Source: Nemertoderma westbladi (taxonomy: Eukaryota; Animalia; Xenacoelomorpha). Taken from it: 45,469 nt of DNA. The position numbers and the translations under genes were made by a program. This document shows, one piece after another, positions 1,899-32,936 of this stretch (positions are counted from its first letter, which is position 1; each line of letters starts with the position of its first letter). Under the pieces are notes generated by a model. It saw only the letters and a list, made by a program, of their open reading frames with translations, did no database searches and was not told where the DNA came from. The stretch lies in NCBI GenBank assembly GCA_032718475.1, contig JAUCBJ010005094.1, positions 1 through 45,469 of the forward strand, in the 5' to 3' direction.

Positions 1899-2228
1899 AC
1901 TGTGCCTGTCTCAAAGTCTGGAAATTTCTGAATGCAGTTCAAAACTTTTGAACGCAGGAATTTTTGTAAATAAAATATAATTGCTGCTTCTAACAGCAGA
2001 ACAGTCTGAACTCTATTTAAATACCACTGAACCATTGCCCTGTGTACTCTGCGCTACAACTGTACTCCCTTCACCCAAGTCTAAACACTACATGCGCACA
2101 TTCACATGCCCACTTAAGATTGTTGCTGTGATTGTGACGCTCACCACATGGTGCATTGGCAGATTGGCCTGGAATCTACTCCACTTCACCCAACACCTAC
2201 TAATAAACTTGCAGTTCAGCTTAGGACT

Positions 2229-3256
2229 ATGGATTCCGATGCCGACTCTGTCGCTGATCGCTACATTCCTTTCGACGGCTTTCACAGGTCACTGGCTGAC
2301 TGGTGGATGTCAACGAAATGCAAACCAAACATCAACCCACCCCCCAGTTCAGCAGTTGACGTTGTGGAAGAAGAGCCCCTGCCAGCCCGCAACTCGATCA
2401 AGTTGAACTTGAAGCCTACAGTCAGACAGTCTCAGCGGCAGTGCTGCTAGTATCAGCAGAACCAGAAGTAACCGATACCAGTACAGACTTTCTCAAACAA
2501 AACCGGACGACAGCAAAATCCCGCGTAACACGACTCAAACCATAAGTAAGCAACCACATTGAAGGACAGGGCAGCAGCAGTACCTACGCTAAAGCTGCTA
2601 CTAGAAGACCTAACCGACGTCATTCTGGAGTACGCCGCCTCGCATCGATACACATGAAAACTCTCCAAACAGTCGGTCAGTCAGCCACTCCGAGAACATG
2701 GCGACGTGGATCTCCTCAGTGTGCAATGCAGCTAATGCATGCCGCTGCAGCACTGCTGCGCAAACCTACCTATACACCCGTTCCGGTACACAGTCCATTG
2801 TCTCGGGTGCGAGTTCTCGAATGGCTGCCCGATTGGCCCGTCAAGAACTCGAAGCCAACCTCGAACTCGAACATTTTGACAAAACTCAATCATCACACGA
2901 TCGTGAAGGCGAACTGGCCACATTTGCCGCTCGGCAGGCTGCTGACCAAGCTGCCCAAAACCTAAAACTCCCGTCTGAGTGCCGTAAAATGACGCTATGA
3001 AACTATCAAAGAACTTGAACTGAGAGTGGAGCGTTCCAGTCTCGCTTCTCGCTCTACTCCCGATCAGGAGAACGAGGACAGCACGTCCAACATTGGAGTG
3101 AATCCCGATGTTCCTGAGCCTACACAAGCCAGCCTCCCTGCGGCCCCAGCTGCCCCCTCCATGGTATCAGTTGGCCCCCCGTGGGTTCCCCCGGCTGCCC
3201 CGCTCGCAGTCGCATTGACAACTGGAAACCCGTTATTCCTACCCCCTTCCAGTTAG
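2229..3256 (+). pseudogene. Degenerate GC-rich coding remnant, possibly the gag N-terminus of a BEL/Pao LTR retrotransposon
   Basis: GC-rich island with consecutive broken plus-strand ORFs. The Ser-rich then helical Ala/Glu/Arg segment (SIVSGASSRMAARLARQELEANLELEHF) followed by a Pro/Ala-rich linker resembles BEL/Pao gag N-termini. This is resemblance only; no LTR or pol motif was seen. Confidence 0.3.
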
Positions 3257-4109
3257 GTGACCTTGGCTCCTGTGAACCTGTTGCCGTCCTCCATCGGGAC
3301 TCTATTTTCTCTCACCTACCTGTCCATTCCGCGCTCTCTCAGCAGCGTGAACTCGCCGGAGTTCTTTTCGACTTCAGCGCTCGGCTTCACATCGATAACT
3401 GCCGCTTCCAATTGTCCAATCGCCACTCCTTGAGAAACTGCCCCTGTTTAGCGTCCCCAGCCAGGCCGACACGGAGAGTTCCCGGCTTCCCCCTGGATCC
3501 TTACTATCCTTACAATTGCTATTTGAAGTAATGGACCCGGGGGGGGGGGGGGGGGGGTGGACACTACAAATACTATATTATCTACTGAAATTTTTAACTC
3601 AATTTTAGATTAAAAACTTTTTTAAACATTTGCTTTTGTGTATACTCAATTCTACACCCACCAAAGTAGTTAATAACATCCTTTTTATTATCCTTTATAA
3701 ACAAATTGGTGTTATTTTTATGAATATATAAATACCTCCATAGCGCCCAAGTACTACATTTGTACCCTACCTAATAAATCGAGATTGGTTAAAGTTTTGA
3801 TACTGTTGTTGAAACTATGTTTAAGTTAGACCATTTGGACTTAGTTCTGAAAATATGAATACATTGCCTCGAGTTTTTAGATGTCTGGGTTTTGCTGGGT
3901 TTTAATAATAAAATATTATAACTTTATTCAATCTGGCACAGCATTATGGAACATACGTTTATTAGCATTTTGCATATATATTTGGTTCAAATATAAAAAA
4001 CAGTGTTATTTTAAGTGGTTTGTTTCTTTTTTTTTTCAAGTTAATTTATTTATATTTTATCAATAACGTTTCGGGATAAATAAACACGTGGCCTACATAA
4101 TAGTGTGAA

Positions 4110-4654
4110 AAATGTGCCAGAAATGAGCCAGAAATGTTCCAGAAATGTGCCAGAAATGTGATAGAAATGTGCCAGAAATGTTCCAGAAATGTGCCAGAAA
4201 TGTGACAGAAATGTGACAGTAATGTGACAGAAATGTGACAGTAATGTGACAGAAATGTGACAGTAATGTGACATAAATGTGACATAAATGTGACAGTAAT
4301 GTGATAGAAATGTGCCAGAAATGTGACAGTAATGTTCCAGAAATGAGCCAGAAATGTGATAGAAATGTGCCAGAAATGTTCCAGAAATGTGCCAGAAATG
4401 TGACAGTAATGTGCCAGATATGTGACAGAAATGTGATAGAAATGTGCCAGGAATGTGATAGAAATGTGCCAGATATGTGACAGAAATGTGATAGAAATGT
4501 GCCAGAAATGTGACAGAAATGTGACAGTAATGTGATAGAAATGTGACAGAAATGTGCCAGAAATGTGACAGAAATGTGACAGTAATGTGACAGAAATGTG
4601 CCAGAAATGTGACAGAACTGTGACAGAAATGTGCCAGAAATGGGACAGAAATGT
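4110..4654. repeat. 11-bp minisatellite, consensus AAATGTGMCAG, about 50 units
   Basis: Visible tandem AAATGTGACAG, AAATGTGCCAG and AAATGTGATAG units. Confidence 0.95.
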
Positions 4655-5095
4655 ACACAATAAATAAAAGGGACCCAAAAACATCACAGCAGTGCCATTC
4701 TTAAAAACATACACAAGCAACATTATTGTAAAAAGTGGACAGACAAATCAGGGAAAAGTCAGGTAATTTGATATACAGGACATCATGGTGACATAAAGCG
4801 AAAATGGGTAAAATTTTCTCAGCTCGCTTCACTCGCCGCCGTTACATTTCCTCTTATCACTAAATATGTATAATACAGGTGCACTCTAATCACTTCGTTG
4901 TCAGTAATTGATGTGTTGTGGTGACATGGTGTGTGGATGTGATGTTTACCGCTAAATATATATATCTATGTGACTTTCTTTGGAATATAATTAAATGGTC
5001 ATGAATTAATTGTAGAGGTTTTTATAAATATGACTATGATAAAAAATTAATATATGAAGCCCTCGTCTCCTCGATACGTTGCTTTTGTGTTTCAG

Positions 5096-6712
5096 GTGAG
5101 TGGCAACCCTGGCCAGGGTCCACTCAACCTTTCTCCCCAACCTTTCCAGGTGAGTGGCAACCCTGGCCAGGGTCCACTCAGCCTTTCTCCCCAACTATTC
5201 CAGGTGAGTGGCAACCCTGGCCAGGGTCCACTCAACCTTTCTCCCCAACCTTTCCAGGTGAGTGGCAACCCTGGCCAGGGTCCACTCAACCTTTCTCCCC
5301 AACTACTCCAGGTGAGTGGCAACCCTGGCCAGGGTCCACTCAGTCTTTCTCCCAAACTATTCCAGGTGAGTGGCAACCCTGGCCCGGGTCCACTCAGCCT
5401 TTCTCCCAAACTACTCCAGGTGAGTGGCAACCCTGGCCCGGGTCCACTCAGCCTTTCTCCCAAACTACTCCAGGCGAGTGGCAACCCTGGCCTGGGTCCA
5501 CTCAGCCTTTCTCCCAAACTACTCCAGGTGAGTGGCAACCCTGGCCAGGGTCCACTCAGCCTTTCTCCCCAACTACTCCAGGTGAGTGGCAACCCTGGCC
5601 CGGGTCCACTCAGCCTTTTTCCCAAACTACTCCAGGTGAGTGGCAACCCCGGCCCGGGTCCACTCAGCCTTTCTCCCAAACTACTCCAGGTGAGTGGCAA
5701 CCCTGGCCAGGGTCCACTCAGTCTTTCTCCCAAACTATTCCAGGTGAGTGGCAACCCTGGCCAGGGTTCACTCAGCCTTTCTCCCCAACTATTCCAGGTG
5801 AGTGGCAACCCTGGCCACGATCCACTCAGCCTTTCTCACCAACTATTCCAGGTGAGTGGCAACCCTGGCCAGGGTCCACTCAGCCTTTCTCCCCAACTAC
5901 TCCAGGTGAGTGGCAACCCTGGCCCGGGTCCACTCAGCCTTTTTCCCAAACTACTCCAGGTGAGTGGCAACCCCGGCCCGGGTCCACTCAGCCTTTCTCC
6001 CAAACTACTCCAGGTGAGTGGCAACCCTGGCCAGGGTCCACTCAGTCTTTCTCCCAAACTATTCCAGGTGAGTGGCAACCCTGGCAAGGGTTCACTCAGC
6101 CTTTCTCCCCAACTATTCCAGGTGAGTGGCAACCCTGGCCCGGGTCCACTCAGCCTTTCTCCCAAACTACTCCAGGCGAGTGGCAACCCTGGCCAGGGTC
6201 CACTCAGCCTTTCTCCCAAACTACTCCAGGTGAGTGGCAACCCTGGCCAAGATCCACTCAGCCTTTCTCCCCAACTATTCCAGGTGAGTGGCAACCCTGG
6301 CCACGATCCACTCAGCCTTTCTCTCCAACTATTCCAGGTGAGTGGCAACCCTGGCCAGGGTCCACTCAGTCTTTCTCCCAAACTATTCCAGGTGAGTGGC
6401 AACCCTGGCAAGGGTTCACTCAGCCTTTCTCCCCAACTATTCCAGGTGAGTGGCAACCCTGGCCCGGGTCCACTCAGCCTTTCTCCCCAACTACTCCAGG
6501 TGAGTGGCAACCCTGGCCCGGGTCCACTCAGCCTTTCTCCCCAACTATTCCAGGTGAGTGGCAACCCTGGCCCGGGTCCAATCAGACTTTCTCCCCAACT
6601 ACTCCAGGTGAGTGGCAACCCTGGCCAGGGTCCACTCAACCTTTCTCCCCAACTACTCCAGGTGAGTGGCAACCCTGGCCAGGGTCCACTCAGCCTTTCT
6701 CCCAAACTACAG
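5096..6712 (+). repeat. 54-bp tandem array, 30 units (29 x 54 + 1 x 51 = 1617 bp)
   Basis: Unit GTGAGTGGCAACCCTGGCCAGGGTCCACTCAGCCTTTCTCCCCAACTATTCCAG. The length arithmetic fits exactly. Confidence 0.97.
5096..6712 (+). CDS. Candidate phase-1 coding exon of an unidentified plus-strand gene, encoding 30 copies of GEWQPWPGSTQPFS(P/Q)T(T/I)P
   Basis: Preceded by a good acceptor (GCTTTTGTGTTTCAG, 5081-5095) and followed by CAG|GTGAGT at 6713. The frame has no stops and no upstream in-frame ATG. About 8 variant types are synonymous in this frame versus about 3 in the listed QVSGNPG frame. Alternatively it is a terminal exon reading on to TGA at 6748-6750, with AATAAA at 6832-6837. Confidence 0.5.
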
Positions 6713-6891
6713 GTGAGTGTGGGACTTCCATAAATGTCAGTTTCTTTTGATAAATTGAAAAAATAGTTTATCATAATAATTATTATTGTGCATAAGAAAT
6801 GTATAACAATAAGAACGCAATTGCACCAAAAAATAAACAAACAAATTAAACTGGAATTGGAATGTCCGTAATAATTATATTTATCCCGTCA

Positions 6892-9800
6892 CATGTAATA
6901 TTAACCCATGTAATATTAACCTATGTAATATTAACCCATGGAATATTAATCCATGTAATATTAACAAATGTAATATTAACCCATGTAATATTAACCCATA
7001 TCATATTAACCCATGTAATATTAACCCATGTAATATTAACCCATATCATATTAACCCATGTAATATTATCAAATGTAATATTAACAAATGTAATATTAAC
7101 AAATGTAATATTAACAAATGTAATATTAACCCATGTAATATTAACCCATGTAATATTAACCCATGTAATATTAACAAATGTAATATTAACAAATGTAATA
7201 TTAACCCATGTAATATTAACCCATGTAATATTAACCCATGTAATATTAACCAATGTAATATTAACCCATTTAATATTCACCCATGTAATATTAATCAATG
7301 TAATATTAACCCATGTAATATTAACAAACGTAATATTAACCCATGTAATATTAACTCATGTAATATTAACTCATGTAATATTAACCCATGTAATATTAAT
7401 CTATGTAATATTAACCCATGTAATTTTAACCCATGTAATATTAACCCATGTAATATTAACCCATATCATATTAACCCATATAATATTAACAAATGTAATA
7501 TTAACCCATGTAATATTAACCAAAGTAACATTAACCCATGTAATATTAACCAATGTAATATTAACCCATGTAATATTAACTCATGTAATATTAACCCATG
7601 TAATATTAACCCATGTAATATTAATCCATGTAATATTAACCCATGTAATATTAACCCATGTAATATCAACCCATGTAATATTAACAAATGTAATATTAAC
7701 CCATGTAATATTAACCCATGTAATATTAACCCATGTAATATTAATCCAAGTAATATTAACCCATGTAATATTAACCCATGTAATATCAACCCATGTAATA
7801 TTAACAAATGTAATATTAACCCATGTAATATTAACCCATGTAATATTAACCCATGTAATATTAACCCATGTAATATTAACAAATGTAATATTAACAAATG
7901 TAATATTAACCCATGTAATATTATCAAATGTAATATTAACAAATGTAATATTAACAAATGTAATATTAACAAATGTAATATTAACCCATGTAATATTAAC
8001 CCATGTAATATTAACCCATGTAATATTAACACATGTAATATTAACAAATGTAATATTAACCCATGTAATATTAACCCATGTAATATTAACCCATGTAATA
8101 TTAACCCATGTAATATTAACCAATGTAATATTAACCCATTTAATATTCACCCATGTAATATTAATCAATGTAATATTAACCCATGTAATATTAACAAATA
8201 TAATATTAACAAATGTAATATTAACCCATGTAATATTAATCCATGTAATATTAACCCATGTAATATTAACCCATGTAATATCAACCCATGTAATATTAAC
8301 AAATGTAATATTAACCCATGTAATATTAACCCATGTAATATTAACCCATGTAATATTAATCCATGTAATATTAACCCATGTAATATTAACCCATGTAATA
8401 TTAACCAATGTAATATTAACCCATTTAATATTCACCCATGTAATATTAATCAATGTAATATTAACCCATGTAATATTAACAAATATAATATTAACAAATG
8501 TAATATTAACCCATGTAATATTAATCCATGTAATATTAACCCATGTAATATTAACCCATGTAATATCAACCCATGTAATATTAACAAATGTAATATTAAC
8601 CCATGTAATATTAACCCATGTAATATTAATCCATGTAATATTAACCCATGTAATATTAACCCATGTAATATCAACCCATGTAATATTAACAAATGTAATA
8701 TTAACCCATGTAATATTAACCCATGTAATATTAACCCATGTAATATTAACCCATGTAATATTAACAAATGTAATATTAACAAATGTAATATTAACCCATG
8801 TAATATTATCAAATGTAATATTAACAAATGTAATATTAACAAATGTAATATTAACAAATGTAATATTAACCCATGTAATATTAACCCATGTAATATTAAC
8901 CCATGTAATATTAACAAATGTAATATTAACAAATGTAATATTAACCCATGTAATATTAACCCATGTAATATTAACCCATGTAATATTAACCAATGTAATA
9001 TTAACCCATTTAATATTCACCCATGTAATATTAATCCATGTAATATTAACCCATGTAATATTAACCCATGTAATATTAACCAATGTAATATTAACAAATG
9101 TAATATTAATCCATGTAATATTAACCCATTTAATATTCACCCATGTAATATTAATCAATGTAATATTAACCCATGTAATATTAACAAATATAATATTAAC
9201 AAATGTAATATTAACCCATGTAATATTAACCCATGTAATATTAACCCATGTAATATTAACAAATGTAATATTAACCAATGTAATATTAACCCATGTAATA
9301 TTAACCCATGTAATATTAACCCATGTAATATTAACCCATGTAATATTAACCCATGTAATATTAACAAATATAATATTAACAAATGTAATATTAACCCATG
9401 TAATATTAACCCATGTAATATTAACAAATATAATATTAACAAATGTAATATTAACCCATGTAATATTAACCCATGTAATATTAACCCATGTAATATTAAC
9501 AAATATAATATTAACAAATGTAATATTAACCCATGTAATATTAACCCATTTAATATTCACCCATGTAATATTAATCAATGTAATATTAACCCATGTAATA
9601 TTAACAAATATAATATTAACAAATGTAATATTAACCCATGTAATATTAACCCATGTAATATTAACCCATGTAATATTAACCCATGTAATATTAACCCATG
9701 GAATATTAACAAATATAATATTAACCAATGTAATATTAACCAATGTAAAATAACCCATGTAATATTAACCCATGTAATATTAACCCATGTAATATTAACA

Positions 9801-12800
9801 AATATAATATTAACAAATGTAATATTAACCCATGTAATATTAACCCATGTAATATTAACAAATATAATATTAACAAATGTAATATTAACCCATGTAATAT
9901 TAACCCATGTAATATTAACCCATGTAATATTAACCCATGTAATATTAACCCATGGAATATTAACAAATATAATATTAACCAATGTAATATTAACCAATGT
10001 AAAATAACCCATGTAATATTAACCCAGGTAATATTAACCCATGTAATATTAACCCATGTAATATTAACCCATGTATTATTAACCAATGTAATATTAACCC
10101 ATGTAATATTAACCCATGTAATATTAACCCATATAATATTAACAAATGTAATATTAACCCATGTAATATTAACCCATGTAATATTAACCCATGTAATATT
10201 AACCCATGTAATATTAACCCATGTAATATTAACCAATGTAATATTAACCCATGTAATATTAACCCATGTATTATTAACCAATGTAATATTAACCCATGTA
10301 ATATTAATCCATGTAATATTAACCCATGTAATATTAACCCATGTAATATCAACCCATGTAATATTAACAAATGTAATATTAACCCATGTAATATTAACCC
10401 ATGTAATATTAACCCATGTAATATTAACCCATGTAATATTAACAAATGTAATATTAACAAATGTAATATTAACCCATGTAATATTATCAAATGTAATATT
10501 AACAAATGTAATATTAACAAATGTAATATTAACCCATGTAATATTAACCCATGTAATATTAACCCATGTAATATTAACAAATGTAATATTAACAAATGTA
10601 ATATTAACCCATGTAATATTAACCCATGTAATATTAACCCATGTAATATTAACCAATGTAATATTAACCCATTTAATATTCACCCATGTAATATTAATCA
10701 ATGTAATATTAACCCATGTAATATTAACAAATATAATATTAACAAATGTAATATTAACCCATGTAATATTAATCCATGTAATATTAACCCATGTAATATT
10801 AACCCATGTAATATCAACCCATGTAATATTAACAAATGTAATATTAACCCATGTAATATTAACCCATGTAATATTAACCCATGTAATATTAATCCATGTA
10901 ATATTAACCCATGTAATATTAACCCATGTAATATTAACCAATGTAATATTAACCCATTTAATATTCACCCATGTAATATTAATCAATGTAATATTAACCC
11001 ATGTAATATTAACAAATATAATATTAACAAATGTAATATTAACCCATGTAATATTAATCCATGTAATATTAACCCATGTAATATTAACCCATGTAATATC
11101 AACCCATGTAATATTAACAAATGTAATATTAACCCATGTAATATTAACCCATGTAATATTAATCCATGTAATATTAACCCATGTAATATTAACCCATGTA
11201 ATATCAACCCATGTAATATTAACAAATGTAATATTAACCCATGTAATATTAACCCATGTAATATTAACCCATGTAATATTAACCCATGTAATATTAACAA
11301 ATGTAATATTAACAAATGTAATATTAACCCATGTAATATTATCAAATGTAATATTAACAAATGTAATATTAACAAATGTAATATTAACAAATATAATATT
11401 AACAAATGTAATATTAACCCATGTAATATTAATCCATGTAATATTAACCCATGTAATATTAACCCATGTAATATCAACCCATGTAATATTAACAAATGTA
11501 ATATTAACCCATGTAATATTAACCCATGTAATATTAACCCATGTAATATTAACCCATGTAATATTAACAAATGTAATATTAACAAATGTAATATTAACCC
11601 ATGTAATATTATCAAATGTAATATTAACAAATGTAATATTAACAAATGTAATATTAACAAATGTAATATTAACCCATGTAATATTAACCCATGTAATATT
11701 AACAAATGTAATATTAACAAATGTAATATTAACAAATGTAATATTAACCCATGTAATATTAACCCATGTAATATTAACCCATGTAATATTAACCCATGTA
11801 ATATTAACAAATATAATATTAACAAATGTAATATTAACCCATGTAATATTAACCCATTTAATATTCACCCATGTAATATTAACCCATGTAATATTAACAA
11901 ATATAATATTAACAAATGTAATATTAACCCATGTAATATTAACCCATGTAATATTAACAAATATAATATTAACAAATGTAATATTAACCCATGTAATATT
12001 AACCCATTTAATATTCACCCATGTAATATTAATCAATGTAATATTAACCCATGTAATATTAACAAATATAATATTAACAAATGTAATATTAACCATGTAA
12101 TATTAACCCATGTAATATTAACCCATGTAATATTAACAAATGTAATATTAACCAATGTAATATTAACCCATTTAATATTCACCCATGTAATATTAATCAA
12201 TGTAATATTAACCCATGTAATATTAACAAATATAATATTAACAAATGTAATATTAACCATGTAATATTAACCCATGTAATATTAACCCATGTAATATTAA
12301 CAAATGTAATATTAACCAATGTAATATTAACCCATGTAATATTAACCCATGTAATATTAACCCATGTAATATTAACCCATGTAATATTAACCCATGTAAT
12401 ATTAACAAATATAATATTAACAAATGTAATATTAACCCATGTAATATTAACCCATGTAATATTAACAAATATAATATTAACAAATGTAATATTAACCCAT
12501 GTAATATTAACCCATGTAATATTAACCCATGTAATATTAACAAATATAATATTAACAAATGTAATATTAACCCATGTAATATTAACCCATTTAATATTCA
12601 CCCATGTAATATTAATCAATGTAATATTAACCCATGTAATATTAACAAATATAATATTAACAAATGTAATATTAACCATGTAATATTAACCCATGTAATA
12701 TTAACCCATGTAATATTAACAAATGTAATATTAACCAATGTAATATTAACCCATGTAATATTAACCCATGTAATATTAACCCATGTAATATTAACCCATG

Positions 12801-15800
12801 TAATATTAACCCATGTAATATTAACAAATGTAATATTAACCCATGTAATATTAACCCATGTAATATTAACAAATATAATATTAACAAATGTAATATTAAC
12901 CCATGTAATATTAACCCATGTAATATTAACCCATGTAATATTAACCCATGTAATATTAACCCATGGAATATTAACAAATATAATATTAACCAATGTAATA
13001 TTAACCAATGTAAAATAACCCATGTAATATTAACCCATGTAATATTAACCCATGTAATATTAACAAATATAATATTAACAAATGTAATATTAACCCATGT
13101 AATATTAACCCATGTAATATTAACAAATATAATATTAACAAATGTAATATTAACCCATGTAATATTAACCCATGTAATATTAACCCATGTAATATTAACC
13201 CATGGAATATTAACAAATATAATATTAACCAATGTAATATTAACCAATGTAAAATAACCCATGTAATATTAACCCAGGTAATATTAACCCATGTAATATT
13301 AACCCATGTAATATTAACCCATGTATTATAACCAATGTAATATTAACCCATGTAATATTAACCCATGTAATATTAACCCATATAATATTAACAAATGTAA
13401 TATTAACCCATGTAATATTAACCCATGTAAAATTAACCCATGTAATATTAACCCATGTAATATTAACCCATGTAATATTAACCAATGTAATATTAACCCA
13501 TGTAATATTAACCCATGTATTATTAACCAATGTAATATTAACCCATGTAATATTAACCCATGTAATATTAACCCATGTAATATTAACCCATGTAATATTA
13601 ACCCATGTAATATTAACAAATGTAATATTAACAAATGTAATATTAACCCATGTAATATTATCAAATGTAATATTAACAAATGTAATATTAACAAATGTAA
13701 TATTAACAAATATAATATTAACAAATGTAATATTAACCCATGTAATATTAATCCATGTAATATTAACCCATGTAATATTAACCCATGTAATATCAACCCA
13801 TGTAATATTAACAAATGTAATATTAACCCATGTAATATTAACCCATGTAATATTAATCCATGTAATATTAACCATGTAATATTAACCCATGTAATATCAA
13901 CCCATGTAATATTAACAAATGTAATATTAACCCATGTAATATTAACCCATGTAATATTAACCCATGTAATATTAACCCATGTAATATTAACAAATGTAAT
14001 ATTAACAAATGTAATATTAACCCATGTAATATTATCAAATGTAATATTAACAAATGTAATATTAACAAATGTAATATTAACAAATGTAATATTAACCCAT
14101 GTAATATTAACCCATGTAATATTAACCCATGTAATATTAACCCATGTAATATTAACAAATATAATATTAACAAATGTAATATTAACCCATGTAATATTAA
14201 CCCATTTAATATTCACCCATGTAATATTAACCCATGTAATATTAACAAATATAATATTAACAAATGTAATATTAACCCATGTAATATTAACCCATGTAAT
14301 ATTAACAAATATAATATTAACAAATGTAATATTAACCCATGTAATATTAACCCATTTAATATTCACCCATGTAATATTAATCAATGTAATATTAACCCAT
14401 GTAATATTAACAAATATAATATTAACAAATGTAATATTAACCATGTAATATTAACCCATGTAATATTAACCCATGTAATATTAACCCATGTAATATTAAC
14501 CCATGTAATATTAACCCATGTAATATTAACAAATATAATATTAACAAATGTAATATTAACCCATGTAATATTAACCCATTTAATATTCACCCATGTAATA
14601 TTAATCAATGTAATATTAACCCATGTAATATTAACAAATATAATATTAACAAATGTAATATTAACCATGTAATATTAACCCATGTAATATTAACCCATGT
14701 AATATTAACAAATGTAATATTAACCAATGTAATATTAACCCATGTAATATTAACCCATGTTATATTAACCCATGTAATATTAACCCATGTAATATTAACC
14801 CATGTAATATTAACCCATGTAATATTAACAAATATAATATTAACAAATGTAATATTAACCCATGTAATATTAACCCATGTAATATTAACAAATATAATAT
14901 TAACAAATGTAATATTAACCCATGTAATATTAACCCATGTAATATTAACCCATGTAATATTAACCCATGTAATATTAACCCATGTAATATTAACAAATAT
15001 AATATTAACAAATGTAATATTAACCCATGTAATATTAACCCATGTAATATTAACAAATATAATATTAACAAATGTAATATTAACCCATGTAATATTAACC
15101 CATGTAATATTAACCCATGTAATATTAACCCATGTAATATTAACCCATGGAATATTAACAAATATAATATTAACCAATGTAATATTAACCCATGTAATAT
15201 TAACCCATGTAATATTAACCCATATAATATTAACAAATGTAATATTAACCCATGTAATATTAACCCATGTAATATTAACCCATGTAATATTAACCCATGT
15301 AATATTAACCCATGTAATATTAACCAATGTAATATTAACCCATGTAATATTAACCCATGTATTATTAACCAATGTAATATTAACCCATGTAATATTAACC
15401 CATGTAATATTAACCCATATAATATTAACAAATGTAATATTAACCCATGTAATATTAACCCATGTAATATTAACCCATGTAATATTAACCCATGTATTAT
15501 TAACCAATGTAATATTAACCCCTGTAATATTAACCCATGTAATATTAACCCATATAATATTAACAAATGTAATATTAACCCATGTAATATTAACCCATGT
15601 AATATTAACCCATGTAATATTAACCCATGTAATATTAACCAATGTAATATTAACCCATGTAATATTAACCCATGTATTATTAACCAATGTAATATTAACC
15701 CATGTAATATTAACCCATGTAATATTAACCCATATAATATTAACAAATGTAATATTAACCCATGTAATATTAACCCATGTAATATTAACCCATGTAATAT

Positions 15801-17968
15801 TAACCCATGTAATATTAACCAATGTAATATTAACCCATGTAATATTAACAAATGTAATATTAACCCATGTAATATTAACCCATGTAATATTAATCCATGT
15901 AATATTAACCATGTAATATTAACCCATGTAATATCAACCCATGTAATATTAACAAATGTAATATTAACCCATGTAATATTAACCCATGTAATATTAACCC
16001 ATGTAATATTAACCCATGTAATATTAACAAATGTAATATTAACAAATGTAATATTAACCCATGTAATATTATCAAATGTAATATTAACAAATGTAATATT
16101 AACAAATGTAATATTAACAAATGTAATATTAACCCATGTAATATTAACCCATGTAATATTAACCCATGTAATATTAACCCATGTAATATTAACAAATATA
16201 ATATTAACAAATGTAATATTAACCCATGTAATATTAACCCATTTAATATTCACCCATGTAATATTAACCCATGTAATATTAACAAATATAATATTAACAA
16301 ATGTAATATTAACCCATGTAATATTAACCCATGTAATATTAACAAATATAATATTAACAAATGTAATATTAACCCATGTAATATTAACCCATTTAATATT
16401 CACCCATGTAATATTAATCAATGTAATATTAACCCATGTAATATTAACAAATATAATATTAACAAATGTAATATTAACCATGTAATATTAACCCATGTAA
16501 TATTAACCCATGTAATATTAACCCATGTAATATTAACCCATGTAATATTAACAAATATAATATTAACAAATGTAATATTAACCCATGTAATATTAACCCA
16601 TTTAATATTCACCCATGTAATATTAATCAATGTAATATTAACCCATGTAATATTAACAAATATAATATTAACAAATGTAATATTAACCATGTAATATTAA
16701 CCCATGTAATATTAACCCATGTAATATTAACAAATGTAATATTAACCAATGTAATATTAACCCATGTAATATTAACCCATGTTATATTAACCCATGTAAT
16801 ATTAACCCATGTAATATTAACCCATGTAATATTAACCCATGTAATATTAACAAATATAATATTAACAAATGTAATATTAACCCATGTAATATTAACCCAT
16901 GTAATATTAACAAATATAATATTAACAAATGTAATATTAACCCATGTAATATTAACCCATGTAATATTAACCCATGTAATATTAACCCATGTAATATTAA
17001 CCCATGTAATATTAACAAATATAATATTAACAAATGTAATATTAACCCATGTAATATTAACCCATGTAATATTAACAAATATAATATTAACAAATGTAAT
17101 ATTAACCCATGTAATATTAACCCATGTAATATTAACCCATGTAATATTAACCCATGGAATATTAACAAATATAATATTAACCAATGTAATATTAACCCAT
17201 GTAATATTAACCCATGTAATATTAACCCATATAATATTAACAAATGTAATATTAACCCATGTAATATTAACCCATGTAATATTAACCCATGTAATATTAA
17301 CCCATGTAATATTAACCCATGTAATATTAACCAATGTAATATTAACCCATGTAATATTAACCCATGTATTATTAACCAATGTAATATTAACCCATGTAAT
17401 ATTAACCCATGTAATATTAACCCATATAATATTAACAAATGTAATATTAACCCATGTAATATTAACCCATGTAATATTAACCCATGTAATATTAACCCAT
17501 GTATTATTAACCAATGTAATATTAACCCCTGTAATATTAACCCATGTAATATTAACCCATATAATATTAACAAATGTAATATTAACCCATGTAATATTAA
17601 CCCATGTAATATTAACCCATGTAATATTAACCCATGTAATATTAACCAATGTAATATTAACCCATGTAATATTAACCCATGTATTATTAACCAATGTAAT
17701 ATTAACCCATGTAATATTAACCCATGTAATATTAACCCATATAATATTAACAAATGTAATATTAACCCATGTAATATTAACCCATGTAATATTAACCCAT
17801 GTAATATTAACCCATGTAATATTAACCAATGTAATATTAACCCATGTAATATTAACCCATATAATATTAACAAATGTAATATTAACCCATGTAATATTAA
17901 CCAATGTAATATTAACCCATGTAATATTAACCCATGTAATATTAACCCATGTAATATCAACCCATGTA
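6892..17968. repeat. 15-bp AT-rich satellite (CATGTAATATTAACC)n, about 11.1 kb and about 740 units, with higher-order structure
   Basis: Directly visible. Palindromic TAATATTA core, recurrent variant units and occasional 14-bp units. Confidence 0.98.
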
Positions 17969-18152
17969 GTATAGATTCCATTGATCAGTCTATTCCTCAC
18001 CCGAGCAAAAAGAACGGGATGAGGAAATTAACATAGAAAATCTGAACAAGAAATTAGGTAATTCTTAGAGATAAGATTAACTATTATTATAAAACTTAAA
18101 GTAACATTAAATAGCGGCTTAAATAAAACATTACGACAACACAAAGCCAAAA

Positions 18153-20521
18153 CTATATTTTTTTAAGCAAATTCTCTAGTTTCTTTATGGTTCCAGACTC
18201 TTTATCTACTAAAGCGGAGAAGGCCTGTACGGCAGCTGATTGGCTGCTGGGTAGACTGTGGTGCATGGGGGATCTAGTCGCCCCAGCAACCGACTGACTG
18301 GGCATCTTGGCGTAGAAGATCTCGAGCAGCCCGCTCTGCTCCCCGCGTCGCAACCCCTTCATATCGAGGATCTTCTGGAAGTTATTCACGTCGAAGTCAT
18401 CGAGAAGGTTGACGTAGTTGTCGACGAAACCATCGGCGACGTCATGCGGCGACATGACGACCTTAAGGATCATCTCAGCGCGGCTCATACCCTTAATGAC
18501 GATCTTGGTGAAGCTAGTCGGGGCCTTCCTACCGATCTGGGAACCGATCTGCGGCAGCTCCAGCAGCACCGTCTTAAGCGAGTGCGTGTCCAACAGCAGC
18601 TGCTCGGCACCGACGGTGCTCACTGGTTTGCACCGGAACAACGCGTTTATAAACTTCGGTATGAAGGCGTTTACGAATCGGACGCAGAACTGGGTGAAGT
18701 ACTTCCGGACGGAGGCCAACCGGTCGCGGATCGTGGGTAACGAGAGTTTAAACTGGCCGACCATGTTGGTGACGTAGACGCCCTGGTCTCCGACGGAGTC
18801 CACACTGCGCCAGTCTACCCGCGTCATCGCTAACAGCGCCGACTCGCAACCGGTCTCCAGATCCGCGACCAGTAACCCGATGCATTGCGACACGACCCCG
18901 TGGAAGGCGTCCTGTTCCCGCGCCAGACTCACACTCTCCCGACCTCGTCCACGCAACTTCTCCCCCAGTTTCTCCTCCAGCTGTTTGCTGGTCTCCAGAC
19001 AGTACTCGGCCGTGCTGAGTATCCCGCAGACCTGTCGCACTTCCTCCCTGGAGTAGCGCGACTCACCGGAAACTCCCTCCTTCAGCAACGCCCCAACGTT
19101 CCCGTCCTTAAGACTTTCCTTCAGGATGGCGGCGAGGTTTATCCCGGAGCTCTGCGGAAGTTTCGGTAGGTTGGGGACGAGCACGCGAGTCGCGTACTCC
19201 GCCAGGTACCGTTGGAACAGTCGGGAGACGCCCAGTAACGGCTCGGGGCTCCCGAGCTGGCCGCACTCCACCATGCAGTGTTTGTAAGCGTGGAAGAGAT
19301 CCGCGCAGCTCGGGAGGACTGACTCGCTACCGAAGTCGCAACTCTCTGACAGGAATCGCTCCATCATACCCGACAGGTTTCGGTTTTGGTACTCAACGTA
19401 GACCGGCATGTGGGGCTGGAAGCAACTCGATATAAAACCGTGGAACTCCGACTCCGGCTGATTCGAGTCGGAAGGAAATCGTTTCGAGAGGAGCAGCTCG
19501 AAGTTGGTGGTCCGCTGGGTGGCGAAGAGGAGGAGTTTAACTTGAATATCGGCGGCGCGAGTCGCCATGATGGAGGAGAGTTGGTCGCGAGTTGCGCGAC
19601 AGAAGGCCACGCAGATGGTGCGACTTACGTCCCACCCGGAGGGGAACAGATGACTGAACTTGTGTTCGTAGTCCAGGAGGGAGCGCTTCAACCAGGCGTA
19701 GCGACGGTCTATCTTATCGAGCCAGGCGGCGTCCTGATTGGCTGCGAACAACACGCGATACTCGGACAGCTGGTTGTCTACGAACCAGACGAGCAGCTCC
19801 GACCGGTAACGCGTCGACAACGAGTCCAGCACCAGACACCCGTCGGCCAGCTGCTTAGAGTTAGACGCAGACCACGACTTCCCAGACTGGTAGGAGAAGA
19901 CTTCGTGGAAGTCTCCTATAATCCTGGTCCCCAAGGTCTCCTCTACAGACTTAAGACGCTCCCCGAGCTGTTTTATGTGCCGGACTTCTGCATAGGAACT
20001 AAAGTGCTGCATTACGTTCTGCGAGGCCGGCAGAACGTTCGCAACTTCCCCGTACTGTCGTTTAGGCGCTAAGTTCTCCAGCGACTCAACGCTACCCACT
20101 AGTAGATGCAAATGGTTTAGAGTTGTTATACTAGTGGTTAGGTGGCGTTTCGCGAAGTCGAGGGTTTTAATGTCACGGGTGATCTCTTTGACCATACGTT
20201 CTGACTGCTCGGCTTTTTCTTTGATACCGAGTATTTGAGCTGCGAGTTGTTCGATAGACTCTTTGGCGTCGTTGACGCAACGACTACCCTCTTCCCCAAC
20301 ATTAGTTTGACCGCGCACTACGTCCCGGATGTCGCCATCAATTCGTCGCAGTCGCATACGGATCTTAGAGACAACGTCGTCGATGTTGGCTAGACTCTGT
20401 TCCGTCGGGAACAACATGTTAATGTGGTCCACCACATTGAACTCGCGTTTATCAAGGGGGTCGTCGTTAGGGAATAGCTCCTTTATAACTTCTTCTACCT
20501 CCGGTGGGTAATTAAGATCCG
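18153..20521 (-). pseudogene. VPS53: 5'-truncated tandem duplicate of VPS53. It lacks the first 18 codons and the promoter; the rest of the ORF is intact, with the first ATG (Met53) at 20417
   Basis: Near-identical to the downstream copy at an offset of 5832 bp. Homology ends at 20521 within the PPDLNY codons. An in-frame TAA lies just upstream in the junction insert. The start listed in the ORF track (20435) is a GTG. Confidence 0.85.
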
Positions 20522-20542: not shown

Positions 20543-23500
20543 ATGTATTATTAACCAATGTAATATTAACCCATGTAATATTAACCCATGTAATATTAAC
20601 CCATATAATATTAACAAATGTAATATTAACCCATGTAATATTAACCCATGTAATATTAACCCATGTAATATTAACCCATGTAATATTAACCAATGTAATA
20701 TTAACCCATGTAATATTAACCCATGTATTATTAACCAATGTAATATTAACCCATGTAATATTAACCCATGTAATATTAACCCATGTAATATTAACCCATG
20801 TAATATTAACCCATGTAATATTAACAAATGTAATATTAACAAATGTAATATTAACCCATGTAATATTATCAAATGTAATATTAACAAATGTAATATTAAC
20901 AAATGTAATATTAACAAATATAATATTAACAAATGTAATATTAACCCATGTAATATTAATCCATGTAATATTAACCCATGTAATATTAACCCATGTAATA
21001 TTAACAAATGTAATATTAACCCATGTAATATTAACCCATGTAATATTAATCCATGTAATATTAACCCATGTAATATTAACAAATGTAATATTAACCCATG
21101 TAATATTAACCCATGTAATATTAATCCATGTAATATTAACCCATGTAATATTAACCCATGTAATATCAACCCATGTAATATTAACAAATGTAATATTAAC
21201 CCATGTAATATTAACCCATGTAATATTAACCCATGTAATATTAACCCATGTAATATTAACAAATGTAATATTAACAAATGTAATATTAACCCATGTAATA
21301 TTATCAAATGTAATATTAACAAATGTAATATTAACAAATGTAATATTAACAAATGTAATATTAACCCATGTAATATTAACCCATGTAATATTAACCCATG
21401 TAATATTAACCCATGTAATATTAACAAATATAATATTAACAAATGTAATATTAACCCATGTAATATTAACCCATTTAATATTCACCCATGTAATATTAAC
21501 CCATGTAATATTAACAAATATAATATTAACAAATGTAATATTAACCCATGTAATATTAACCCATGTAATATTAACAAATATAATATTAACAAATGTAATA
21601 TTAACCCATGTAATATTAACCCATTTAATATTCACCCATGTAATATTAATCAATGTAATATTAACCCATGTAATATTAACAAATATAATATTAACAAATG
21701 TAATATTAACCATGTAATATTAACCCATGTAATATTAACCCATGTAATATTAACCCATGTAATATTAACCCATGTAATATTAACAAATATAATATTAACA
21801 AATGTAATATTAACCCATGTAATATTAACCCATTTAATATTCACCCATGTAATATTAATCAATGTAATATTAACCCATGTAATATTAACAAATATAATAT
21901 TAACAAATGTAATATTAACCATGTAATATTAACCCATGTAATATTAACCCATGTAATATTAACAAATGTAATATTAACCAATGTAATATTAACCCATGTA
22001 ATATTAACCCATGTAATATTAACCAATGTAATATTAACCCATGTAATATTAACCCATGTAATATTAACAAATATAATATTAACAAATGTAATATTAACCC
22101 ATGTAATATTAACCCATGTAATATTAACAAATATAATATTAACAAATGTAATATTAACCCATGTAATATTAACCCATGTAATATTAACCCATGTAATATT
22201 AACCCATGTAATATTAACCCATGTAATATTAACCCATGTAATATTAACAAATATAATATTAACAAATGTAATATTAACCCATGTAATATTAACCCATGTA
22301 ATATTAACAAATATAATATTAACAAATGTAATATTAACCCACGTAATATTAACCCATGTAATATTAACCCATGTAATATTAACCCATGGAATATTAACAA
22401 ATATAATATTAACCAATGTAATATTAACCAATGTAATATTAACCCATGTAATATTAACCCATGTAATATTAACCCATATAATATTAACAAATGTAATATT
22501 AACCCATGTAATATTAACCCATGTAATATTAACCCATGTAATATTAACCCATGTAATATTAACCAATGTAATATTAACCCATGTAATATTAACCCATGTA
22601 TTATTAACCAATGTAATATTAACCCATGTAATATTAACCCATGTAATATTAACCCATATAATATTAACAAATGTAATATTAACCCATGTAATATTAACCC
22701 ATGTAATATTAACCCATGTAATATTAACCCATGTATTATTAACCAATGTAATATTAACCCATGTAATATTAACCCATGTAATATTAACCCATATAATATT
22801 AACAAATGTAATATTAACCCATGTAATATTAACCCATGTAATATTAACCCATGTAATATTAACCCATATAATATTAACAAATGTAATATTAACCCATGTA
22901 ATATTAACCCATGTAATATTAACCCATGTAATATTAACCCATGTAATATTAACCAATGTAATATTAACCCATGTAATATTAACCCATATAATATTAACAA
23001 ATATAATATTAACCAATGTAATATTAACCAATGTAATATTAACCCATGTAATATTAACCCATGTAATATTAACCCATATAATATTAACAAATGTAATATT
23101 AACCCATGTAATATTAACCCATGTAATATTAACCCATGTAATATTAACCCATGTAATATTAACCAATGTAATATTAACCCATGTAATATTAACCCATGTA
23201 TTATTAACCAATGTAATATTAACCCATGTAATATTAACCCATGTAATATTAACCCATATAATATTAACAAATGTAATATTAACCCATGTAATATTAACCC
23301 ATGTAATATTAACCCATGTAATATTAACCCATGTATTATTAACCAATGTAATATTAACCCATGTAATATTAACCCATGTAATATTAACCCATATAATATT
23401 AACAAATGTAATATTAACCCATGTAATATTAACCCATGTAATATTAACCCATGTAATATTAACCCATGTAATATTAACCAATGTAATATTAACCCATGTA

Positions 23501-23800
23501 ATATTAACCCATGTATTATTAACCAATGTAATATTAACCCATGTAATATTAACCCATGTAATATTAACCCATATAATATTAACAAATGTAATATTAACCC
23601 ATGTAATATTAACCCATGTAATATTAACCCATGTAATATTAACCCATGTAATATTAACCAATGTAATATTAACCCATGTAATATTAACCCATATAATATT
23701 AACAAATGTAATATTAACCCATGTAATATTAACCAATGTAATATTAACCCATGTAATATTAACCCATGTAATATTAACCCATGTAATATCAACCCATGTA
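20543..23800. repeat. Second block of the 15-bp satellite, about 3.26 kb and about 217 units
   Basis: Same unit and variants as 6892-17968. Its right boundary (...ATCAACCCATGTA|GTATAGATTCC) is identical to that of the first block. Confidence 0.98.
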
Positions 23801-23984
23801 GTATAGATTCCATTGATCAGTCTATTCCTCACCCGAGCAAAAATAACGGGATGAGGAAATTAACATAGAAAATCTGAACAAGAAATTAGGTAATTCTTAG
23901 AGATAAGATTAACTATTATTATAAAACTTAAAGTAACATTAAATAGCGGCTTAAATAAAACATTACGACAACACAAAGCCAAAA

Positions 23985-26405
23985 CTATATTTTTTTAAGC
24001 AAATTCTCTAGTTTCTTTATGGTTCCAGACTCTTTATCTACTAAAGCGGAGAAGGCCTGTACGGCAGCTGATTGGCTGCTGGGTAGACTGTGGTGCATGG
24101 GGGATCTAGTCGCCCCAGCAACCGACTGACTGGGCATCTTGGCGTAGAAGATCTCGAGCAGCCCGCTCTGCTCCCCGCGTCGCAACCCCTTCATATCGAG
24201 GATCTTCTGGAAGTTATTCACGTCGAAGTCATCGAGAAGGTTGACGTAGTTGTCGACGAAACCATCGGCGACGTCATGCGGCGACATGACGACCTTAAGG
24301 ATCATCTCAGCGCGGCTCATACCCTTAATGACGATCTTGGTGAAGCTAGTCGGGGCCTTCCTACCGATCTGGGAACCGATCTGCGGCAGCTCCAGCAGCA
24401 CCGTCTTAAGCGAGTGCGTGTCCAACAGCAGCTGCTCGGCACCGACGGTGCTCACTGGTTTGCACCGGAACAACGCGTTTATAAACTTCGGTATGAAGGC
24501 GTTTACGAATCGGACGCAGAACTGGGTGAAGTACTTCCGGACGGAGGCCAACCGGTCGCGGATCGTGGGTAACGAGAGTTTAAACTGGCCGACCATGTTG
24601 GTGACGTAGACGCCCTGGTCTCCGACGGAGTCCACACTGCGCCAGTCTACCCGCGTCATCGCTAACAGCGCCGACTCGCAACCGGTCTCCAGATCCGCGA
24701 CCAGTAACCCGATGCATTGCGACACGACCCCGTGGAAGGCGTCCTGTTCCCGCGCCAGACTCACACTCTCCCGACCTCGTCCTCGCAACTTCTCCCCCAG
24801 TTTCTCCTCCAGCTGTTTGCTGGTCTCCAGACAGTACTCGGCCGTGCTGAGTATCCCGCAGACCTGTCGCACTTCCTCCCTGGAGTAGCGCGACTCACCG
24901 GAAACTCCCTCCTTCAGCAACGCCCCAACGTTCCCGTCCTTAAGACTTTCCTTCAGGATGGCGGCGAGGTTTATCCCGGAGCTCTGCGGAAGTTTCGGTA
25001 GGTTGGGGACGAGCACGCGAGTCGCGTACTCCGCCAGGTACCGTTGGAACAGTCGGGAGACGCCCAGTAACGGCTCGGGGCTCCCGAGCTGGCCGCACTC
25101 CACCATGCAGTGTTTGTAAGCGTGGAAGAGATCCGCGCAGCTCGGGAGGACTGACTCGCTACCGAAGTCGCAACTCTCTGACAGGAATCGCTCCATCATA
25201 CCCGACAGGTTTCGGTTTTGGTACTCAACGTAGACCGGCATGTGGGGCTGGAAGCAACTCGATATGAAACCGTGGAACTCCGACTCCGGCTGATTCGAGT
25301 CGGAAGGAAATCGTTTCGAGAGGAGCAGCTCGAAGTTGGTGGTCCGCTGGGTGGCGAAGAGGAGGAGTTTAACTTGAATATCGGCGGCGCGAGTCGCCAT
25401 GATGGAGGAGAGTTGGTCGCGAGTTGTGCGACAGAAGGCCACGCAGATGGTGCGACTTACGTCCCACCCGGAGGGGAACAGATGACTGAACTTGTGTTCG
25501 TAGTCCAGGAGGGAGCGCTTCAACCAGGCGTAGCGACGGTCTATCTTATCGAGCCAGGCGGCGTCCTGATTGGCTGCGAACAACACGCGATACTCGGACA
25601 GCTGGTTGTCTACGAACCAGACGAGCAGCTCCGACCGGTAACGCGTCGACAACGAGTCCAGCACCAGACACCCGTCGGCCAGCTGCTTAGAGTTAGACGC
25701 AGACCACGACTTCCCAGACTGGTAGGAGAAGACTTCGTGGAAGTCTCCTATAATCCTGGTCCCCAAGGTCTCCTCTACAGACTTAAGACGCTCCCCGAGC
25801 TGTTTTATGTGCCGGACTTCTGCATAGGAACTAAAGTGCTGCATTACGTTCTGCGAGGCCGGCAGAACGTTCGCAACTTCCCCGTACTGTCGTTTAGGCG
25901 CTAAGTTCTCCAACGACTCAACGCTACCCACTAGTAGATGCAAATGGTTTAGAGTTGTTATACTAGTGGTTAGGTGGCGTTTCGCGAAGTCGAGGGTTTT
26001 AATGTCACGGGTGATCTCTTTGACCATACGTTCTGACTGCTCGGCTTTTTCTTTGATACCGAGTATTTGAGCTGCGAGTTGTTCGATAGATTCTTTGGCG
26101 TCGTTGACGCAACGACTACCCTCTTCCCCAACATTAGTTTGACCGCGCACTACGTCCCGGATGTCGCCATCAATTCGTCGCAGTCGCATACGGATCTTAG
26201 AGACAACGTCGTCGATGTTGGCTAGACTCTGTTCCGTCGGGAACAACATGTTAATGTGGTCCACCACATTGAACTCGCGTTTATCAAGGGGGTCGTCGTT
26301 AGGGAATAGCTCCTTTATAACTTCTTCTACCTCCGGTGGGTAATTAAGATCCGGCGGTAAATTGAGATCATCCAACACACTTGTATCCTTCTCGGTGTCC
26401 ATCAC
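23985..26405 (-). CDS. VPS53: Vacuolar protein sorting-associated protein 53 homolog (GARP/EARP tethering complex subunit), 806 aa, intron-free CDS
   Basis: Recognisable conserved Vps53 motifs: DPLD...INMLFPTEQSLANIDDVV, MVKEITRDIKTLDFAKRHLTTSITTLNHL, AWLDKIDRRYAWLKR, GAEQLLLDTHSLKTVLL and FQKILDMKGL. Full-length size. Confidence 0.97.
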   Translation of the reverse strand: MMDTEKDTSVLDDLNLPPDLNYPPEVEEVIKELFPNDDPLDKREFNVVDHINMLFPTEQSLANIDDVVSKIRMRLRRIDGDIRDVVRGQTNVGEEGSRCVNDAKESIEQLAAQILGIKEKAEQSERMVKEITRDIKTLDFAKRHLTTSITTLNHLHLLVGSVESLENLAPKRQYGEVANVLPASQNVMQHFSSYAEVRHIKQLGERLKSVEETLGTRIIGDFHEVFSYQSGKSWSASNSKQLADGCLVLDSLSTRYRSELLVWFVDNQLSEYRVLFAANQDAAWLDKIDRRYAWLKRSLLDYEHKFSHLFPSGWDVSRTICVAFCRTTRDQLSSIMATRAADIQVKLLLFATQRTTNFELLLSKRFPSDSNQPESEFHGFISSCFQPHMPVYVEYQNRNLSGMMERFLSESCDFGSESVLPSCADLFHAYKHCMVECGQLGSPEPLLGVSRLFQRYLAEYATRVLVPNLPKLPQSSGINLAAILKESLKDGNVGALLKEGVSGESRYSREEVRQVCGILSTAEYCLETSKQLEEKLGEKLRGRGRESVSLAREQDAFHGVVSQCIGLLVADLETGCESALLAMTRVDWRSVDSVGDQGVYVTNMVGQFKLSLPTIRDRLASVRKYFTQFCVRFVNAFIPKFINALFRCKPVSTVGAEQLLLDTHSLKTVLLELPQIGSQIGRKAPTSFTKIVIKGMSRAEMILKVVMSPHDVADGFVDNYVNLLDDFDVNNFQKILDMKGLRRGEQSGLLEIFYAKMPSQSVAGATRSPMHHSLPSSQSAAVQAFSALVDKESGTIKKLENLLKKI

Positions 26406-28657: not shown

Positions 28658-29400
28658 GGGGGGTCATACTTTTGTACCTGGGGGGGGTCTTACTTTTGTA
28701 CCTGGGGGTGGTCATACTTTTGTACCAGGGGGGGTCTTACTTTTGTACCTGGGGGTGGTCATACTTTTGTACCAGGGGGGGTCTTACTTTTGTACCTGGG
28801 GGTGGTCATACTTTTGTACCAGGGGGGACTTACTTTTGTACCTGGGGGTGGTCATACTTTTGTACCAGGGGGGTCTTACTTTTGTACCTGGAGGGGGTCA
28901 TACTTTTGTACCAGGGGGGTCTTACTTTTCTACCAGGGGGACTTACTTTTGTACCTGGGGGTCTTACACTACTTTTGTACCTGGGGTGTCTTACATTTGT
29001 ACCTGAGGGGGGAGGTCTTACTTTTGTACCTGGGGGGGGGGTCTTACTTTTGTACTTGAGAGGGGGGGGGGGTGGCTTACTTTTGTACCTGGAGGGGTCA
29101 TAGTTTTGTACCAGGGGGGTCTTACTTTTGTACCTGAGGGGTCATACTTTTGTACCTGGGAGGTCTTACTTTTGTACCTGGGATGGGTCTTACGTTTGTA
29201 CCTGGGGGTCTTACGTTTGTACCAGGTGGTCTTACTTTTGTATCTTGGGGGGGGGGGGGGTGGGGGTCTTACGTTTGTACCTGGGGGGTCTTAATTTTGT
29301 ACCTGGGGTGGGTATTACGTTTGTACCTGAGGGTCTTACGTTTGTACCAGGGGGGTCTTACTTTTGTACAAGGGCGGGAAAGAGGGGTCTTACATTTGTA
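28658..29400. repeat. G-run minisatellite, about 22-24-bp unit G(n)TCTTACTTTTGTACCT
   Basis: Visible tandem units with variable poly-G length. Confidence 0.93.
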
Positions 29401-29890: not shown

Positions 29891-30290
29891 CTAACTCGTG
29901 CGAACGACTTAGTATGTCGTGCGAACGACTTACTAAGTCTTGCGAACGACTTAACTGGCACGACATACTAAAGTCGTGCGAACGACATACTAAGTCTTGC
30001 GAACGACTTAACTAACTCGTGCGAACGACATACTAAGTCGTGCGAACGACTTACTAAGTCGTGGGAATGACATATTATGTCGGGCGAACGACTTAACTAA
30101 CTCGTGCGAACGACATACTAAGTCGTGCGAACGACTTACTAAGTCGTACGAACGACATACTAAGTCGTGCGAACGACATACTAACTCGTGCGAACGACTT
30201 ACTAAGTCGTGGGAATGACATATTATGTCGGGCGAACGACTTAACTAACGCGTGCGAACGACTTAGTAACTCGTTCGAACGACTTACTAA
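29891..30290. repeat. 21-bp palindromic minisatellite (TCGTGCGAACGACTTACTAAG)n, about 19 units
   Basis: Visible tandem units with no unique spacers. It may be internal to a truncated DNA element starting near 29850. Confidence 0.9.
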
Positions 30291-32262: not shown

Positions 32263-32936
32263 TATTGAAATAATTTAATAAATATACATTTAAAATTTCA
32301 TGAATGCTTTAACATGAAAACAAGGTACAAAAGAAACATGACATTGTAAATACTGTAGTAGAACAAATCAAATAATTGGTAACGTAAAGCTGGTATAACG
32401 TTTAAGATATATAGTGCAAAAATAATATTATAACAATATTATACAACTAAAAAATTGGTACAAAAAGCTTTCACGTAGAAATTATAACTTATTTATTTCA
32501 GGTGCAAAAACTTTGAGACGGCTGATCAATAATTGCAAACAACTAATTTGGTAGCGATTGCTGCTTGTTGATTGTTCTGGTTTTACATGCAGTAGGCCTA
32601 CTAATAAATAAATAAATACAATAATATACAATTACAGTATTGTTACTGGTATGTATTTGGTAACTGAAAACAAAGGTAAGCAAATGACAACAATTGCTGT
32701 CAGATTCTAAAGAGAACATGCAGGTAAATGTAATGTTTAGAACTTTCTGATATAAAATCTGATATTACTACAATTATTGCGATTCTTTACTTAACTATTT
32801 TGCAGTGATCGTTTGATTTTCTAATAACTTAAATTGCAAAATGCAATGCAAAAGGCACTTTACTTTATAAGTACCGGATAAGATTTTATATGCCAACAAA
32901 CTGCACTTTATGGTGTAAATTGTATGATCACACCTA

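Follow-up and report, generated by a model that had tools for sequence, protein, structure and literature searches.

The 45,469-nt stretch of Nemertoderma westbladi DNA that we analyzed (the window) is largely made of tandem repeats, as satellites with units of 11, 15, 21, 24, and 29 nt fill over half of it (Table 1). It also contains a 30-unit array built around a splice-site motif, a pair of Vps53 genes, and another long open reading frame. The two Vps53 copies are 5832 nt apart and show 5 mismatches in about 2370 nt. In the left one, the 5' end has been lost to the 15-nt satellite, which leaves 754 codons from the ATG, versus 805 in the other. The pair could be either a recent tandem duplication or an assembly duplication. 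Among the best 120 of 1495 matches, Vps53 proteins are 48 to 53% identical to the one in the window, and all the named ones are animal. A quick unrooted tree of this protein and 21 of those 120 matches placed it on a long branch beside the vertebrates (support 0.84), but the tree took in no tunicate or acoel and long branches mislead. The 670-codon ORF presumably resembles SERAC1. Together with Vps53, it suggests that the housekeeping genes of this animal are poor in introns, and both may perhaps be nested antisense in a long intron. The region 1980-3530 is GC-richer and holds several open frames of 110 to 145 codons with no Pfam match; it is possibly a decayed mobile element. On the plus strand, an approximate matrix gives good scores to an acceptor at 32502 and to donors at 32676, 32724, and 45299, and there is an acceptor-like tract at about 45467, where the window ends. 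These sites are possible further exons of a gene hosting the array.

Table 1. Positions of the features discussed in the text, numbered from the first letter of the window.
Feature	Position	Strand	Remarks
30-unit array	5096..6712	+	Candidate phase 1-1 coding exon, (GEWQPWPGSTQPFSPTTP)-type repeat, 49% Pro+Ser+Thr
Internal junctions (29)	5150..6667	+	27 GT donors and 2 GC (5474, 6176), each after a C-rich, U-poor CAG
10-nt direct repeat, left copy	5093..5102	+	Right copy at 6710-6719; likely (putative) seed of the first duplication
Unique U-rich 3' splice site (candidate)	5083..5095	+	Approximate-matrix score, tract rarity
Unique terminal 5' splice site (candidate)	6713..6720	+	U1 pairing, openness; AT-rich (27% GC) sequence after
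15-bp hairpin, first copy	5094..5130	+	Predicted; junction -2..+8 pairs with unit positions 25-35; recurs in every unit
11-nt satellite	4110-4654
15-nt satellites	6892-17972; 20543-23804
About 24-nt satellite	28658-29369
21-nt satellite	29891-30290
29-nt satellite	32936-41518
Vps53, two intronless copies	18153-20521; 23985-26402	-
Intronless 670-codon ORF	41487-43499	-	Weak Pfam hits below cut-off: Abhydrolase_6, DUF7379

The array covers 1617 nt and consists of 29 units of 54 nt followed by a final unit of 51 nt (TRF: period 54, 30.0 copies, 94% matches, 0% indels). The first-pass annotation had described it as a 30-fold series of back-to-back acceptor and donor sites (CAG/GTGAGT) in units of 54 nt. 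The series is borne out, with 31 junctions of the form CAGG[T/C]GAGT between 5093 and 6710, spaced by 54 nt in 29 cases and by 51 nt in one. The unit length holds for all units but the last, whose in-frame shortening by 3 nt is the sole indel of the array. The junction reads CAG/GTGAGT in 29 of the 31 cases, and the other two carry GC in place of GT, as had been noted, at units 8 and 21. Units do end in CAG, but the preceding stretch, described as pyrimidine-rich, is C-rich and interrupted by A. Internal acceptors have 6 to 8 pyrimidines and only 2 or 3 U in the 10 nt that precede their final four bases, whereas the first acceptor has 8 U. We also found, as described, the unique acceptor (ending at 5095) and the unique donor (starting at 6713) that bound the array, as well as a 10-mer common to both boundaries, which is a plausible seed for duplication.

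How unusual is such an array? The motif YAGGTRAGT arises on either strand in 0.15% of 200,000 shuffles of a sequence with the composition of the unit. The motif is thus unusual once, and the array is this one motif amplified. Since the 30 copies represent a single event, their number adds no statistical weight. AGGTRAG was absent from all five other satellites tested in the window, and no other copy of the unit was found in the rest of it. The 30 units fall into 19 distinct types, and identical units occur most often six units apart (6 of 23 such pairs). This is a mark of minisatellite block duplication and argues against a simple stutter of the assembly. Each unit is also an imperfect palindrome, and imperfect palindromes can amplify without any function.

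The outer boundaries of the array resemble those of an exon. Among plus-strand AG sites outside satellites, none of 1049 scores as high as the acceptor at 5095 with an approximate matrix, which was not trained on this organism. Its tract alone is equaled by 1.8% of 12,010 background positions, and by 0.7% when the AG-free zone is included. Counting against it, opening this acceptor is predicted to cost more than opening any other (8.9 kcal/mol, versus 1.7 to 4.6 for the inner ones). At the other end, the terminal donor has one extra pair with U1 (-14.1 versus -13.3 kcal/mol for internal donors). At the start of the array, the candidate 3' splice site (5095/5096) is directly followed by a 5' splice-site motif, with a donor downstream at either 5150 or 6713. 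This corresponds to the anatomy of an RS-exon, which would not be rare by human standards: according to Blazquez 2018 (PMC6224609), a reconstitutable donor stands at the start of 3.6% of human exons, and of these exons 93.8% are constitutive. The proposal of an amplified recursive-splicing exon is consistent with the outer boundaries and with the start of the array, but finds no support at the internal junctions (see below).

Two plus-strand frames are open through the array. All three minus frames contain stops (31, 1, and 30), and coding on that strand was rejected for this reason. The frame entered in phase 1 runs for 539 codons without a stop and encodes an 18-residue repeat with the majority unit GEWQPWPGSTQPFSPTTP. 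In this frame, 9 of 20 variant alleles are synonymous, versus a mean of 4.77 (P 0.026) under a null in which each substitution type is placed at a randomly chosen base of the same kind. For the second open plus frame the count is 4 of 20, where 5.90 are expected. By codon parsimony, synonymous and non-synonymous steps number 10 and 10 in the phase-1 frame, versus 4 and 16 in the other. A crude likelihood ratio of coding over neutral evolution, averaged over omega, is ~15 (best omega 0.42). When only units 4-29 are considered, 8 of 18 variants are synonymous, versus 4.0 expected (P 0.026, uncorrected). This coding signal is modest. The excess is based on 20 alleles and corresponds to about P 0.05 once the existence of two open frames is taken into account, and 9 of 20 is likewise the count in one minus frame riddled with stops (P 0.054). 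We found no in-frame ATG for the phase-1 frame, either upstream or within the repeat; hence, this frame requires splicing at acceptor 5095. It meets a stop at 6748-6750, and an AATAAA, which is common in AT-rich DNA, follows at 6832. That the array is a last exon is thus a further possibility. The predicted peptide is also rich in Trp and Gln, and 28 units contain W-x-x-W, which we take to be a C-mannosylation motif. Its Pro/Ser/Thr richness and W-x-x-W would suit an extracellular protein.

The searches revealed no relatives of this repeat. No repeat protein matched at E <= 0.001 among 7993 candidates of 296 to 944 residues, and an exact look-up matched 0 of 4 proteins. A search of 1.84 billion representatives returned 20 hits; the 9 that we examined are unrelated repeats lacking the unit, and Pfam gave nothing relevant on 12 of the 20. 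The best match to the repeat in the Atlas was 0.90, with an unnamed cluster. A metagenome scan with a 23-nt pattern gave 0 matches, as did Rfam. One metagenome locus, from 12 stretches that fit a peptide pattern, was rejected as a chance hit because it had a single 9-codon match and no tandem repeat. Protein, metagenome, and window ORF searches found no homologue or flanking exon for the array. Within the window we identified neither a mucin-type flanking domain nor a flanking coding exon; the gene may extend beyond it.

Our preferred explanation, which we hold with moderate confidence, is one coding exon of 1617 nt that specifies an 18-residue repeat rich in Pro, Ser, and Thr, with outer sites that would normally be spliced and 29 inner junctions predicted to be mostly silent. 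An exon comprising the whole array is favored by the pattern of variants, by the last unit being in frame, and by the exposure of the terminal donor. Transcription, splicing, translation, and the host gene itself are what we infer from these data. The ancestral exon, of 51 to 54 nt, would have begun with GTGAGTG, letters identical to those of its own donor. The 10-nt direct repeat that flanks it would have mediated its duplication, and ordinary minisatellite turnover would have expanded it afterwards. In the likely frame, the junction would consist of Pro-Gly-Glu-Trp codons, which could explain the presence of the motif in every copy. The inner acceptors would be silent through their low U content and absent branch consensus, and each inner donor would be paired with a complement 25 to 35 nt downstream. 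Only the terminal donor would be open, intron-proximal, and slightly better at pairing with U1. The number of repeats would then vary mainly between alleles at the DNA level, perhaps with minor in-frame shorter splice forms. Published rules of donor choice point in both directions. Of two strong donors separated by 45 nt or more, splicing selects the intron-proximal one in about 100% of cases (Hodson 2012, PMC3413131), and here this would keep the whole array. In human F7, splicing selects the most upstream of the identical tandem donors (PMC1557585). Applied here, that rule would result in a 54-nt exon and counts against an exon spanning the whole array.

The first-pass annotation saw each junction as a potential recursive splice point, and this finds no support. 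Splice-site scoring, which it had proposed as a check, gave a mixed result: 27 internal donors are perfect matches to the consensus, but the inner acceptors have approximate scores of 5.5 to 9.7, versus 10.4 for the first. No yUnAy branch consensus was found in the 45 nt upstream of the six junctions inspected, the first acceptor among them. The strong acceptor that, together with a branch point, is expected at each junction of an RS-exon was not seen at the internal junctions (2 or 3 U per 10 nt at all 29). Recursive ratcheting needs strong acceptors, and since the inner ones are U-poor and, where inspected, without branch consensus, ratcheting at each junction is unlikely. The donors, in addition, are predicted to be buried. 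An intron of one unit would be 54 nt long (108 nt for two), and Hellsten et al. cite a minimal intron of roughly 60 nt (PMC3265369), which would count against each junction being a recursive point. In the known cases of repeated donors, F7 (PMC1557585) and the amphioxus mirages (PMC3087553), one site is used mainly or only. On the other hand, the claim that units could be spliced together without a frameshift is correct: all 432 GT/AG pairs at least 50 nt apart are in frame, because of the unit length. The variants within units do not single out the motif. Its 9 nt contain 1 of the 20 variants, the synonymous change of GT to GC, and this sparing is not significant (P 0.13). A 19-nt block around it is significantly spared (scan P 0.035), a result that the Pro-Gly-Glu-Trp-Gln-Pro codons and splicing would account for equally well.

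A feature new in this analysis is a predicted hairpin by which every unit could bury its own junction. The computed cost of opening a donor is 9.0 to 14.4 kcal/mol for the internal ones (median 12.1) and 5.7 for the terminal one. Against this cost, pairing of the donors with U1 gains about 13 to 14 kcal/mol. The ten outer stem pairs are all intact in 27 of the 30 units, and the GC units are two of the three exceptions. The least masked internal donors are predicted to be those at 5636, 5690, 5960, 6014, 6284, 6338, and 6500. Unit 28, whose own stem is broken, was considered as the most exposed donor and ruled out, as opening it costs 12.3 kcal/mol in context. These predictions should be interpreted with caution. 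One unit folds no better than shuffles (z -0.34), the masking of donors was equaled by 19 out of 300 synonymous recodings and by 17 out of 300 shuffles of the interior, which is borderline, and the 15 pairs of the hairpin show 0 compensatory changes. We regard the hairpin as a computed lead, and perhaps as an accident that allowed the expansion. One could go further and propose that a hairpin-masked donor in each coding unit enabled the expansion, and that partial opening generates an in-frame ladder of 0 to 30 repeats from one allele, mainly of the type "first k units" with extra use of the least masked donors. We think this scenario quite unlikely.

An alternative is that the whole array is coding, but that splicing makes the number of repeats variable for each allele, either through internal donors that keep the first k units or through the removal of at least two whole units as an in-frame intron. 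The 27 perfect inner donors and the products free of frameshifts are what such a process would use, and the synonymous excess is compatible with it as well. There are also precedents. A duplicated AG/GT exon was spliced in 6 to 16% of transcripts in human cells (PMC3265369), some fission-yeast introns are built of 24-nt coding repeats (PMC3629103), a minor ABCA7 isoform uses the donor of the second VNTR unit and is extended by one unit (PMC5954066), and internal tandem repeats of human genes can be retained or spliced out (PMC2812944). However, the inner acceptors are poor, the inner donors are predicted to be masked, and the F7 and Hodson models each predict one dominant donor, either the first or the last. 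Furthermore, the variants give no sign that the motif is kept for splicing, and the one inside it removes the GT. Overall, we find it unlikely that splicing sets the repeat number.

We give about the same low credence to a second alternative, in which only unit 1 (54 nt) is exonic, or the junction is a zero-length recursive point, and the other 29 units are neutral intron beyond a first donor that is the one used. This is what F7 does, using only the most upstream of 5 to 9 identical donors (PMC1557585), and amphioxus mirages are likewise described as leaving normal splicing undisturbed (PMC3087553). The size would also be right: cryptic RS-exons of Drosophila have about 50 nt and the expressed RS-exons of Ubx 51 nt (PMC8605326). 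The window, moreover, is rich in non-coding satellites. Yet the variants of units 4-29 still lean to synonymous in the exon frame, even if this is weak, the frame is free of stops, and the terminal deletion is in frame. The terminal donor is predicted to be the most open one and to pair best with U1. The analogy with F7 has its own limits, since the pseudo-sites of F7 lack a predicted masking structure (PMC1557585), whereas the donors of the array have one.

Finally, it is very unlikely that there is no spliced gene at all. The array would then be a non-coding minisatellite, rich in GC, that arose from a short palindrome with the motif in it by chance, or part of an intronless 559-codon ORF in the other plus frame (ATG 5054, stop 6733). 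In favor of this reading, Pfam found nothing above its curated cut-off in 5 upstream and 52 other unique-region ORFs scanned, the protein and metagenome searches found no true homologue, the palindromic unit could have amplified without a function, and the array was picked as odd out of many repeats. Against it, the motif and the acceptor tract are rare by chance, the synonymous excess sits in the frame that depends on the acceptor, and the ATG frame shows no constraint.

The coding exon that we favor shares traits with several known systems. Expressed RS-exons (PMC6224609, PMC8605326) are alike in having an acceptor, an immediate donor motif, and a second donor downstream, and the 51-nt Ubx microexons (PMC8605326) are close in size to the putative ancestral unit. 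The difference is that here the whole exon would have been amplified 30-fold head to tail, and that the case is known from the anatomy of its sequence. The VNTRs of F7 intron 7 (PMC1557585) and ABCA7 intron 18 (PMC5954066) and the amphioxus mirages (PMC3087553) resemble the array as tandem copies of splice signals made by minisatellite expansion. Their units straddle one boundary and the copies are intronic, whereas the unit of the array runs from acceptor to donor, is in frame, and has a weak coding signal. Intron gain by duplication of AG/GT exons (Hellsten 2011, PMC3265369; PMC4974935; PMC2812944) also involves duplicated in-frame proto-splice sites, and fission yeast splices out introns that each span several coding units of 24 nt (SPOG_01682, SOCG_00815; PMC3629103). 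The array differs from these cases in its genuine-looking outer sites and in that one unit is below the cited minimum of roughly 60 nt (PMC3265369). In Schistosoma, SmPoMuc transcripts vary in repeat number, but there the repeats are separate 27-nt exons in genomic units of roughly 1 kb (PMC2576457), unlike those of the array. The open Pro/Ser/Thr-rich in-frame repeat recalls a mucin-type VNTR exon, although the peptide of the array is rich in Trp and Gln as well. Mucin-type coding VNTR exons encode tandem peptides rich in Pro, Ser, and Thr. In a literature search that covered few subscription papers, we found no description of an amplified whole exon that is in frame and has self-masked donors.

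The significance of the locus lies in the choice between donors. For tandem identical donors, the rules derived from F7 (the first is used, PMC1557585) and from Hodson 2012 (the intron-proximal one is used, PMC3413131) contradict each other. The array is a test case for this choice, with near-identical donors 54 nt apart and unit variants that serve as barcodes, and since all products are in frame, decay should not hide any of them. It also bears on how exonic donors may be masked by RNA structure and on how repeat units may become a new intron. Should the full exon prove to be the only product, this would be an unusual but understandable repeat exon.
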